DNA from: an archaeon
GTDB lineage: Archaea; Nanobdellota; Nanobdellia; Pacearchaeales; DTIR01
Direction of reading: 5' to 3'
NCBI GenBank assembly: GCA_043808285.1
Contig: JAZDFA010000007.1
Span: forward strand, 29,100-93,099
DNA length: 64,000 nucleotides
In this document: positions 37,402 to 38,793 of the stretch, one piece after another
Position numbering within the stretch: position 1 is the first letter of the stretch
How the letters are laid out: each line of letters begins with the position of its first letter
Made by a program: the position numbers and the translations under genes
Notes under the pieces: generated by a model
Databases searched by the model: none
Told to the model about the DNA's origin: nothing
What the model saw: only the letters and a program-made list of their open reading frames with translations

Positions 37402-37460
37402 AGCAGATTTAAAAAATGTATCCTAGAAAAATATTTAAACCCCTCAGAGGTTTTATTTCT

Positions 37461-37535
37461 ATGAGAAAGTCTCATAGAATGCAAATAATGCAGATAGGAA
37501 TATTACTCCTAGTGCTATTAGCCGTGCTTCTATAA
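37461..37535 (+). CDS. Putative Leu-rich leader peptide (MRKSHRMQIMQIGILLLVLLAVLL)
   Basis: 24-codon ORF ~25 nt after TATA; 7 Leu in last 10 codons; followed by a hairpin/U-tract, then leuA-leuS. Confidence 0.6.
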   Translation: MRKSHRMQIMQIGILLLVLLAVLL

Positions 37536-37665
37536 GGCTTCCTTGATTTTCTTTTTAGGTGGAAGTTTTAGGAAAACAAAATGGTTTATCTATATTATTT
37601 AAAAAAATATTGCAAGGGAGAAAGTTAGAGCTGCAGCACCAACAAAAATCAAAGCTTTAAAAAAA

Positions 37666-38793
37666 ATGAAAAAAATAACTTTTTTTGACACCACTCTGAG
37701 AGATGGAGCACAATCAGCTTCTGCAATGCTGCAGACTGAAGATAAGGCAGAGATAGCAATGCAACTTGAAAAATTGAATGTTGATGTTATTGAAGCAGGA
37801 TTCCCGGCATCATCTAAAAAAGAAGCAGAGATAATTGGAAAAATCGCAAAAAAAAGCAGCAAGATTATCGCTGCTTTGGCTAGATCTAGAAAAGAAGATG
37901 TGGAGATTGCATGGGAATGCATTAGGAATGCAAAAAAGCCAAGAATCCACATATTCATTGCATCTTCAAAGTCTCATATGGAAAATAAGCTGCATATGAC
38001 AAAAGAAGAGGTAATTGCCAATGCAGTAAATGCAATAAGATATGCAAAAGAGATAAGCAATGGCAAGGTGGAAGTGGAGTTTTCTGCAGAAGATTCAACA
38101 AGAAGCGAAGAGGAATTCCTGCTGATGCTTTATGAGAAGGCCATAGAAGCAGGTGCAGAAATAATCAATGTTCCGGATACTGTAGGCTATGCAATGACAC
38201 AAGAATTCTCCTCATTTATTGGAAGGATAAGAAAAAGATTTCCTAAAATTAAAATAAGCGTGCATTGCCACAACGACTTGGGACTGGCTGTTGCAAATTC
38301 CATTTGTGCAATAAGCGCAGGAGCAGACCAGGTGCATTGCACAATCAATGGGGTTGGAGAGAGGGCAGGAAATGCTTCACTTGAAGAAATAGCGTCAATA
38401 ATGCATGTAAGAAAAAATTTCTTAAATTGCTTCTCAGATATAAAGATGAATGAAATTTCAAGAACTTCCAAAATGGTAAGCAAGAAATTCGGGGTTGAAG
38501 TGCCGCATTACAAGGCAATTGTTGGCAAGAATGCATTAAGTCATGAAGCAGGGATACATGTGCAATATGTGCAAGGCTACGAAATATTCAAACCAGAAGA
38601 TATTGGGATGCAAAGAGAGATAGTCCTTGGAAAGCACTCAGGAATACATACTGTTTTGGAGGTTGCAAAAATTGCAAATGTAAAAATCGGCAAAGAACAT
38701 GCGGCAAGTATCCTTAAGGAAGTCAAGAGGGGGGATTTTAAGATAACCTCGGCAGATTTTAAAAAGTTCATTGACAAAACAAAAGTAATTTAA
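37666..38793 (+). CDS. leuA: 2-isopropylmalate synthase-like enzyme, short form without regulatory domain
   Basis: [46 protein letters not shown]. Confidence 0.85.

Follow-up and report, generated by a model that had tools for sequence, protein, structure and literature searches.

A short open reading frame (ORF) at positions 37461-37535 of the window (the whole 64,000-nucleotide stretch of contig JAZDFA010000007.1 analysed here) probably encodes a leucine-sensing leader peptide, and would form the first cistron of a leaderless mRNA running on into leuA and leuS, the latter encoding leucyl-tRNA synthetase (LeuRS). We give this reading a probability of roughly 0.7; everything in the case rests on sequence comparison and folding. 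The evidence that carries it consists of the run of leucine codons that closes the ORF, the spacing between the ORF and a TATA box, the recurrence of such ORFs ahead of leuA in related archaea, the exchange of leucine for isoleucine where cimA and ileS lie downstream, and a hairpin starting on the stop codon.

Transcription would start about 21-22 nucleotides (nt) past the TATA box, placing the 5' end of the RNA at or beside the leader AUG, and a ribosome would then translate the leader ORF. With ample charged tRNA-Leu, the ribosome would pass the terminal leucine codons, terminate and depart, allowing the hairpin at the stop codon, the putative negative element, to form. With scarce charged tRNA-Leu, it would linger on the last leucine codons and keep the 5' arm of the hairpin single-stranded, and expression of the downstream genes would go up. 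When one of the last leucine codons occupies its A site, the leading edge of a ribosome lies about 9-12 nt 3' of the first stop-codon base; a terminating ribosome would keep the hairpin arm open for a short time only. The sequences show the leader, its amino-acid specificity, the spacing of its promoter and the place of the hairpin; what we infer from them is that the ribosome stalls, which way expression responds and at which step.

The leader reading frame of the window

The ORF was located in an intergenic region (37402-37665) flanked by a SpoIIM-like gene on the minus strand (36745-37401) and a leuA-like gene on the plus strand. Both elements that the initial annotation had pointed to here, a TATA box and an ORF with a leucine run, were found in the sequence, with 21 nt between the end of the box and the leader ATG (coordinates in Table 1). 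The leader product of 24 amino acids (aa), MRKSHRMQIMQIGILLLVLLAVLL, has a basic N-terminus, and its 16 C-terminal residues are mostly hydrophobic. The last ten codons read TTA CTC CTA GTG CTA TTA GCC GTG CTT CTA, the leucine codons among them being TTA (twice), CTC, CTA (three times) and CTT, and three of the six codons that precede this run encode isoleucine. CTA made up 3 of the 7 leucine codons of the run, vs. 11% of the leucine codons in the long ORFs of the genome; tRNA-Leu genes with the anticodons TAG, CAA and AAG were present in the assembly. An alternative version of 39 aa, starting at 37416, is conceivable, though it has no promoter at a suitable distance.

Tails with at least five leucines among the last eight residues were found in 51 of the 11,165 ATG-initiated ORFs of 12-45 aa (0.46%; whole genome, both strands). 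When the 445 short ORFs of the genome (8-40 aa) that have a TATA-like box at a suitable distance were ranked for a tail made of one amino acid, the leader ORF came first, and it was the only one among the best 40 whose next long ORF starts like an amino-acid gene. Leaders for amino acids other than leucine were not found among the TATA-preceded short ORFs of this genome.

Leaderless mRNAs are common in the genome, since TATA-like boxes peaked 21-24 nt 5' of the ATG, being found there in 30% of 512 ORFs of at least 200 aa. Shine-Dalgarno (SD)-like motifs preceded 14% of these long ORFs, vs. 4% at a control position. The leader ORF, with its 21 nt, matches the leaderless-gene geometry of its own genome; leuA lacks both an SD and a TATA box at the leaderless distance. 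To judge by this promoter geometry, which fixes the presumed transcription start, the leader ORF is probably translated from a leaderless mRNA.

Leader peptides ahead of leuA and cimA in related archaea

A sample of 401 genomes of the same order contained LeuA homologues (E<=1e-40) in 26 genomes and at 28 places, which we sorted ourselves by identity and N-terminal motif into 22 leuA-type loci (40-100% identity, window included), three CimA-type loci (31-34%, about 540-580 aa) and three loci of a third subfamily (33-36%). A fixed rule (an ATG-initiated ORF of 12-45 aa on the same strand, with at least four leucines in its last eight residues and a stop codon 20-150 nt upstream of the gene) was passed by 17 of the 22 leuA-type loci, and by 30 sites in the rest of their sequence (165,234 nt), i.e., 0.024 per stretch the size of the searched interval. 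Two of the loci (L004 and L006; L numbers denote loci) passed only as C-terminal ends of longer upstream ORFs, and another two (L007 and L021) failed the rule with mixed isoleucine/leucine tails, yet showed the TATA spacing and the hairpin. The curated count of leaders was also 17 (L003, L005, L007, L016-L021, L023-L026, L028-L030 and L036); no clean leader was seen in L015, L022 and L027, the first of which has a 57-aa ORF with a leucine-rich tail. These counts are to be read with the relatives as non-independent samples and with start codons of the downstream genes picked by rule.

The leaders of the order were ATG-initiated ORFs of 14-34 codons with a leucine run up to the stop codon, the tail often reading S-L-A-L-L-L-L-L. 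The hydrophobic tails of the relatives were mostly 8-10 residues long, and the N-terminal parts varied. A TATA-like box ended about 21 nt 5' of the leader ATG in nearly all the leader loci of the order, and the spacers of many relatives (28-49 nt) were too short to hold a second promoter. One locus from a different family (L005) had a long spacer with a hairpin and T5, as in the window.

Outside the order, LeuA was found (E<=1e-60) in 16 of 401 genomes sampled across the phylum, the genome of the window included. Fourteen of the 15 loci from other orders were analysed, one from an unpublished genome being excluded, and a leucine-tailed leader of 16-35 codons was present in 13 of these 14, all from other orders of the class (L083 was without). 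A TATA-like box lay about 21-24 nt before the ATG in most of them; L079 had an SD instead and L080 was ambiguous. These genomes are larger (1.0-2.1 Mb), and their LeuA proteins measured 505-548 aa in 10 of the 13 leader loci and 390-421 aa in L076-L078. The gene for the large subunit of acetolactate synthase (ilvB) followed leuA in L069, L070 and L073, and the same N-terminus was seen in L072 and L075. In these larger-genome relatives the leader heads a genuine branched-chain amino-acid operon (leuA-ilvB), a context in which starvation-induced expression is the usual logic. In the reduced genomes, LeuRS was found after leuA by family scan in the window, L005, L015, L016, L017, L018 and L025, and was recognised by its N-terminus in L004 and L019. 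The search for leucine-rich ORFs upstream of leuA/leuS in related genomes that the initial annotation had suggested was thus positive for leuA, both within the order and beyond it.

The same counts bear on whether the ORF might have arisen by chance in an AT-rich divergent promoter region, with the TATA box serving only the SpoIIM-like gene. The octamer is near-symmetric and lies 30 nt from the SpoIIM-like ATG on the opposite strand, as such an origin would have it, but the 0.024 leaders expected per locus, against 17/22 and 13/14 observed, make this explanation extremely improbable.

The amino acid of the run changed with the downstream gene. Among the last eight residues of 30 leuA leaders, 68% were leucine, 9% isoleucine, 8% alanine and 6% valine, and the final residue was leucine in 26 of the 30. 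CimA-type loci were present in eight genomes, of which seven were resolved (G260/L170 stands outside the count). The gene following the CimA-type gene encoded isoleucyl-tRNA synthetase (IleRS), as recognised by family scan in L033, L034, L035, L168 and L169 and by an N-terminal motif in L164 and L165. Isoleucine-rich leaders stood ahead of cimA-ileS in 6 of the 7 resolved genomes (L034, L035, L164, L165, L168 and L169; G234 was without). They had 18-24 codons and a tail formed by an isoleucine run, ending in I-I-A-I-I-I in four of them, with 65% isoleucine and 0% leucine among the last eight residues, and they shared the TATA spacing and the stop-adjacent hairpin with the leucine leaders. A codon sensor predicts this switch between leucine and isoleucine and a plain hydrophobic peptide does not, so that the switch favours the sensor. 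On these comparisons, the ORF encodes a leader peptide specific for its amino acid and no membrane micropeptide.

We accordingly give very little probability to a small hydrophobic membrane peptide that has its own function, or to a nascent leucine-rich peptide that arrests the ribosome irrespective of tRNA charging. Small single-helix membrane proteins are described as common in prokaryotes (PMC10903887), and the basic N-terminus and mostly hydrophobic C-terminal part of the window product would suit one. The tails of most relatives, however, are too short for a membrane span, their N-terminal parts are not conserved, the tail changes from leucine to isoleucine with the downstream gene, and the nucleotides of the run are partly conserved beyond the amino acids. 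The ORF was also found only beside leuA or cimA when judged by two sets of controls. None of the 29 best-matching leuS loci without a preceding leuA (window excluded) had a leucine-tailed short ORF within 400 nt upstream, and a leader belonging to leuS itself was rejected on the same result. A 14-nt motif common to many leaders occurred at 29 places in 27 of the 401 genomes; seven of these places belong to leuA leaders already identified, and at the remaining 22 there was no ORF with a start codon and a terminal leucine run. Homologues that keep hydrophobicity without leucine and lie away from leu genes, which the initial annotation had named as speaking against a leader, were therefore not what was found, either in the composition of the tails or in the two controls.

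Further afield, a metagenome scan gave five loci at 40-50% LeuA identity, none with a leader. A LeuA scan of a species collection gave, as its best 80 loci, nearly all bacterial sequences (42-52% identity): none of these 80 had a short ORF with at least five leucines in its last eight residues, and 17 had a short ORF with at least four leucines in any eight-residue window. A contig whose record title reads Nanohalarchaeota archaeon (L144:1-135) carried a frame ending L-F-L-L-L-stop with an 8-bp hairpin directly 3' and LeuA after it; its start lies beyond the contig end and the locus was excluded from the counts.

All six leucine codons were used in the tails of the 30 leader loci. CTC, CTA and CTG together made up 38% of the leucine codons in the tails, vs. 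22% in the leuA genes, and CTT 17% vs. 29%. Part of the run, TCT-TTA-GCT-TTG-CT, was conserved beyond what the amino acids need in L016, L018-L020, L024, L030 and L036, and these conserved nucleotides can pair with the first leader codons in many loci (e.g., GCTAAAGA with TCTTTAGC); the counterpart in the isoleucine leaders is the pairing of ATGGCTATA with TATAGCT. The resulting 5' hairpin may take part in leaderless initiation.

For other amino acids, no histidine-rich ORF was found before hisG in four relatives. Two of four larger-genome relatives (L172 and L173) had ORFs of nine codons with a single tryptophan near the C-terminus, about 165-220 nt before trpE; they may be tryptophan leaders, and amount to too little for a claim.

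The stop-adjacent hairpin and the proposed output step

The hairpin over the stop codon enclosing a U-rich tract, as described in the initial annotation, was reproduced by folding: TAAGGCTTCC (37533-37542) pairs with GGAAGTTTTA (37561-37570), with the T4-C-T5 tract in the loop, at -10.1 kcal/mol over a 40-nt window (z = -1.79 vs. 200 dinucleotide shuffles). The T4-C-T5 tract is a possible archaeal termination signal. In the minimum-energy fold, the terminal leucine codons pair with leader codons 5-8; the alternative pairing of AGCC with GGCT (4 bp) that had been proposed for the leucine run was missing from it. Further downstream, CAAGGGAG is complementary to CTTCCTTG, directly 3' of the leader stop.

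Among the 32 loci folded (30 leucine leaders and two isoleucine leaders), the onset of the hairpin fell between -3 and +4 nt relative to where the stop codon ends in all 32, the mean z was -2.25, and z was below -1.5 in 22 and below -2 in 16. At 150 ordinary gene ends of the genome of the window, the mean z was -0.16, 14% were below -1.5, and 11% combined such a value with the hairpin position of the leaders. That the hairpin might be the usual terminator at gene ends in this genome was rejected, as ordinary gene ends are without such hairpins; it belongs to the leaders and not to the usual gene ends. Its stem sequences varied by lineage and its position was constant.

The contig of a relative, covering 37508-37683, gives a weak hint in the same direction. 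This single low-depth contig had no listed difference from the window over 37508-37573, and had 10 differing letters and two indels over 37574-37683 (differences at 37574, 37577, 37603, 37605, 37611 and 37643; 5 nt deleted at 37621 and 4 nt inserted after 37655), so that the leader 3' end and the hairpin were unchanged while the spacer varied. The contigs of two DNA runs spanned the leader-spacer stretch in fragments only.

The output step would not be the same in all loci. In part of the relatives it resembles the unmasking of the leuA SD or start codon (translational attenuation): the 3' arm of the hairpin is the SD of the next gene in L021, L023, L026, L029, L007 and L035, and L076-L078 have, by eye, a four-region design in which a second pairing, over the SD/start codon, is in competition with the first hairpin. 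The AUG opened under a ribosome mask in L076 and L077. In many AT-rich loci, the window included, there is no SD. In the window and L005 the hairpin is accompanied by U4 or U5 and no antiterminator was identified; in the window, where the hairpin contains U-tracts, premature termination or another hairpin-dependent block would be as likely as a translational block. Hungry-codon frameshifting into leuA was rejected, the +1 or -1 frame ending within 12 nt of the leuA start in 3 of 64.

Several observations weigh against a leucine-sensing attenuator ahead of leuA-leuS in the window. A ribosome stalled at the first leucine codons of the run would fall short of the hairpin. No clean leader is present in L004, the nearest relative by LeuA (63% identity, same family); there, a 126-aa upstream ORF ends in three leucine codons, a hairpin with the perfect palindrome GAGAATTAATTCTC lies directly 3' (L004:1467-1497), and leuA starts 31 nt past the stop of this ORF. 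The spacer from the leader stop to leuA is 130 nt, the longest of all loci, no SD-like motif was found ahead of the window leuA ATG, and the second TATTTAAA octamer within the spacer could serve as an independent leuA promoter. The SD cores of the 19 loci with an SD-like motif point in favour of an unmasking output: mostly paired in the free RNA (mean unpaired fraction 0.24), they opened to 0.35 with a ribosome mask at the stop (changes above 0.1: 7 up and 1 down, vs. 3 up and 4 down with an upstream control mask); the change was not significant (Wilcoxon p = 0.08; 0.83 for the control mask). Over the initiation region (-18 to +6) of the 32 loci, the mask at the stop had no mean effect (0.50 vs. 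0.51 unpaired; 7 single loci up and 5 down), and the idea that the hairpin generally occludes the region where leuA translation starts was dropped for this reason, a partial effect on SD cores being kept. A U-tract in or after the hairpin was present in the window, L005 and some others and absent from most loci; since T-runs are not universal, a terminator model does not generalise. Lastly, neither the leuB (Iso_dh) nor the leuC (Aconitase) family turned up in the 86%-complete genome, which makes leucine synthesis doubtful here. Of the ribosome-stalling control proposed in the initial annotation, the amino-acid specificity of the leader was supported, the classical terminator/antiterminator design was not, and the part concerning leucine synthesis became doubtful for this genome.

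Some of these observations would also fit a reversed logic, in which completed translation of the leader would open the hairpin and pass the ribosomes on to leuA, through re-initiation or a transient unfolding, so that leuA-leuS would go up with ample leucine and down upon stalling. Without an SD or a leaderless TATA box in the window and in several AT-rich relatives, leuA may need the ribosomes of the leader; the short spacers of many loci (28-49 nt) would suit such a hand-over, a stalled ribosome covers no more of the hairpin arm than does one at the stop, and in a genome seemingly unable to make leucine the biosynthetic logic need not hold. We nevertheless regard it as rather unlikely, as the relatives with a full-length LeuA and ilvB have good leuA SDs and fit the starvation-on logic, a regulatory run of 5-8 cognate codons is unnecessary for plain coupling, and we know of no precedent for lowering LeuRS under leucine scarcity.

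The leader could also be a relic in this genome, with leuA-leuS driven by the box at 37596-37603 and the leader transcript ending at the T-tracts regardless of leucine. The repetition of the octamer, the exceptional length of the spacer, the T4-C-T5 that begins 11 nt past the stop, and the failure to find an SD or an alternative pairing with the leuA start would all be in keeping with a relic. Every conserved leader feature has been kept, however (TATA spacing, intact ORF, terminal leucine run and hairpin); the contig of the relative, as weak evidence, is unchanged at the leader 3' end and hairpin and has two changes at the second box (37603 and 37605); and L005, from another family, shares the long-spacer design with hairpin and T5. 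A relic seems improbable on these grounds, and a functional leucine-sensing leader remains the reading we prefer.

Known attenuators, downstream genes and genome

Leader-peptide attenuation is a textbook bacterial mechanism, and archaeal transcription and translation are coupled; whether archaea use such attenuation has, to our knowledge, long been undecided. In the literature searched (subscription journals were outside its scope), neither archaeal leader-peptide attenuation nor a link between DPANN and leader peptides was found. The classical bacterial systems are the leu, ilv, his and trp leaders of E. coli. The archaeal loci share with them an upstream short ORF rich in cognate codons, with an amino acid that varies by operon; unlike them, they have no Rfam leader match and no consistent terminator hairpin with a U-run, and their leader translation is predicted to be leaderless, not SD-driven. 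T-box riboswitches stand ahead of aminoacyl-tRNA synthetase genes in Firmicutes. They too tie the expression of synthetase and biosynthesis genes to charging of the cognate tRNA, as proposed here, but T-boxes bind the tRNA directly through RNA and have no leader ORF, whereas the archaeal loci have a leader ORF and no T-box match.

Leucine leaders have also been described in actinobacteria (PMC1262725). In the actinobacterial loci L111, L132 and L147, four to five further codons follow the leucine run; in the archaeal leaders the stop codon comes immediately. The closest described analogue appears to be the leaderless poly-cysteine attenuators of mycobacteria, short ORFs reported as cysteine-responsive and forming a “ribulon”, in which a stalled ribosome is proposed to block a duplex hiding the following gene's ribosome-binding site (bioRxiv 10.1101/834739). 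From what is described there, both systems have a short ORF that opens a leaderless polycistronic mRNA (predicted here from promoter geometry), a codon run for one amino acid, metabolic genes of that amino acid downstream, several loci, and a proposed action through a ribosome that would stall in the run and block an RNA structure. Against that description, the archaeal loci differ in their TATA/BRE (B recognition element) promoter, in the presumed sensing of leucine and isoleucine, in a run that abuts the stop codon, in a conserved hairpin that begins on it, in the cognate aminoacyl-tRNA synthetase among the putatively controlled genes, and in that only some of the loci show a sequestered ribosome-binding site. 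Translational attenuation of erm and cat, on the account of the same source (10.1101/834739), responds to an antibiotic and the nascent peptide; the signal of the archaeal leaders would presumably be the supply of charged tRNA.

Taken together, it seems somewhat more likely than not that the class of small-genome, DPANN-like archaea studied here has its own ribosome-mediated attenuation, with leaderless leucine- or isoleucine-run leaders and a stop hairpin controlling leuA-ilvB, cimA, leuS and ileS. If so, Archaea would gain their first described case of leader-peptide attenuation, with a geometry (terminal run and stop-adjacent hairpin) unlike every bacterial type. New would be the domain, the amino acids, a run that abuts the stop, a hairpin starting on the stop codon and synthetase genes among those controlled; the ribosome-sensing kind of control is known from bacteria. 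The case is built on about 36 loci and an internal leucine-vs.-isoleucine control, beyond one suggestive ORF. By this reading, symbiotic archaea with reduced genomes may adjust LeuRS and IleRS to the supply of amino acids via the ribosome. The case also offers a search pattern for archaeal regulatory short ORFs: a TATA box, 21 nt, an ATG and a short ORF whose last codons form a run for one amino acid.

Downstream of the leader, domain and family scans agreed with the initial annotation on a LeuA without its regulatory domain followed by LeuRS (Table 1). LeuA matched PF00682 (277 bits) and PF22617; its best NCBIfam matches were 2-isopropylmalate synthases, every one below the curated cut-off, and no C-terminal regulatory domain was reported in the domain scan. 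No other HMGL-like gene was found in the genome, so that the isopropylmalate synthase core beside leuS stands as an orphan; the analysis flags such an orphan LeuA in genomes without the remainder of the leucine pathway.

Table 1. Positions of the leader elements and of the neighbouring genes in the window.
Feature	Position	Strand	Description
TATA box TATTTAAA	37432..37439	+	Putative promoter of the leader transcript, read from the sequence; A-rich BRE-like stretch just 5'
Leader ORF	37461..37535	+	24 codons and stop; ATG at 37461, TAA at 37533-37535
Codon run	37503..37532	+	Last 10 codons: 7 Leu, 2 Val, 1 Ala; abuts the stop
Stop-adjacent hairpin	37533..37570	+	TAA inside the 5' arm; from folding of 40 nt from the stop
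T4-C-T5 tract	37547..37556	+	In the hairpin loop, putative role in termination; further T4 at 37566-37569 in the 3' arm
Remainder of spacer	37571..37665	+	Second TATTTAAA at 37596-37603; CAAGGGAG at 37613-37620
leuA-like gene	37666..38793	+	375 aa; 2-isopropylmalate synthase catalytic core; HMGL-like and HCS_D2 domains only
leuS	38816..41275	+	Bacterial-type LeuRS; TIGR00396, 926 bits (cut-off 548); 22 nt 3' of leuA
Branched-chain aminotransferase gene	44364..45269		5.6 kb downstream of LeuA

The genome assembly (865 kb, 15 contigs, 86% complete, G+C about 36%) contained TBP, and sigma-70 region 2 was not found in it, which identifies the organism as an archaeon; small-subunit (16S) rRNA was not found in the assembly. 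The genomes of the order all measured 0.3-1.7 Mb, and by its own genome size and its order the organism would be a small-genome, DPANN-like archaeon. A bacterial-type LeuRS was detected in 358 of the 401 genomes (E<=1e-30), and the whole order appears to use this type. Only tRNAs exceeded the Rfam gathering threshold in the window, and the region 37300-37800 gave chance-level Rfam matches only (E of at least 0.49), with no leader family or T-box match.

Two further features of the window were an ORF of 2208 aa (6956-13582, plus strand) and a stretch of about 740 nt devoid of long ORFs (43620-44363), between an ORF of 809 aa and the aminotransferase gene.

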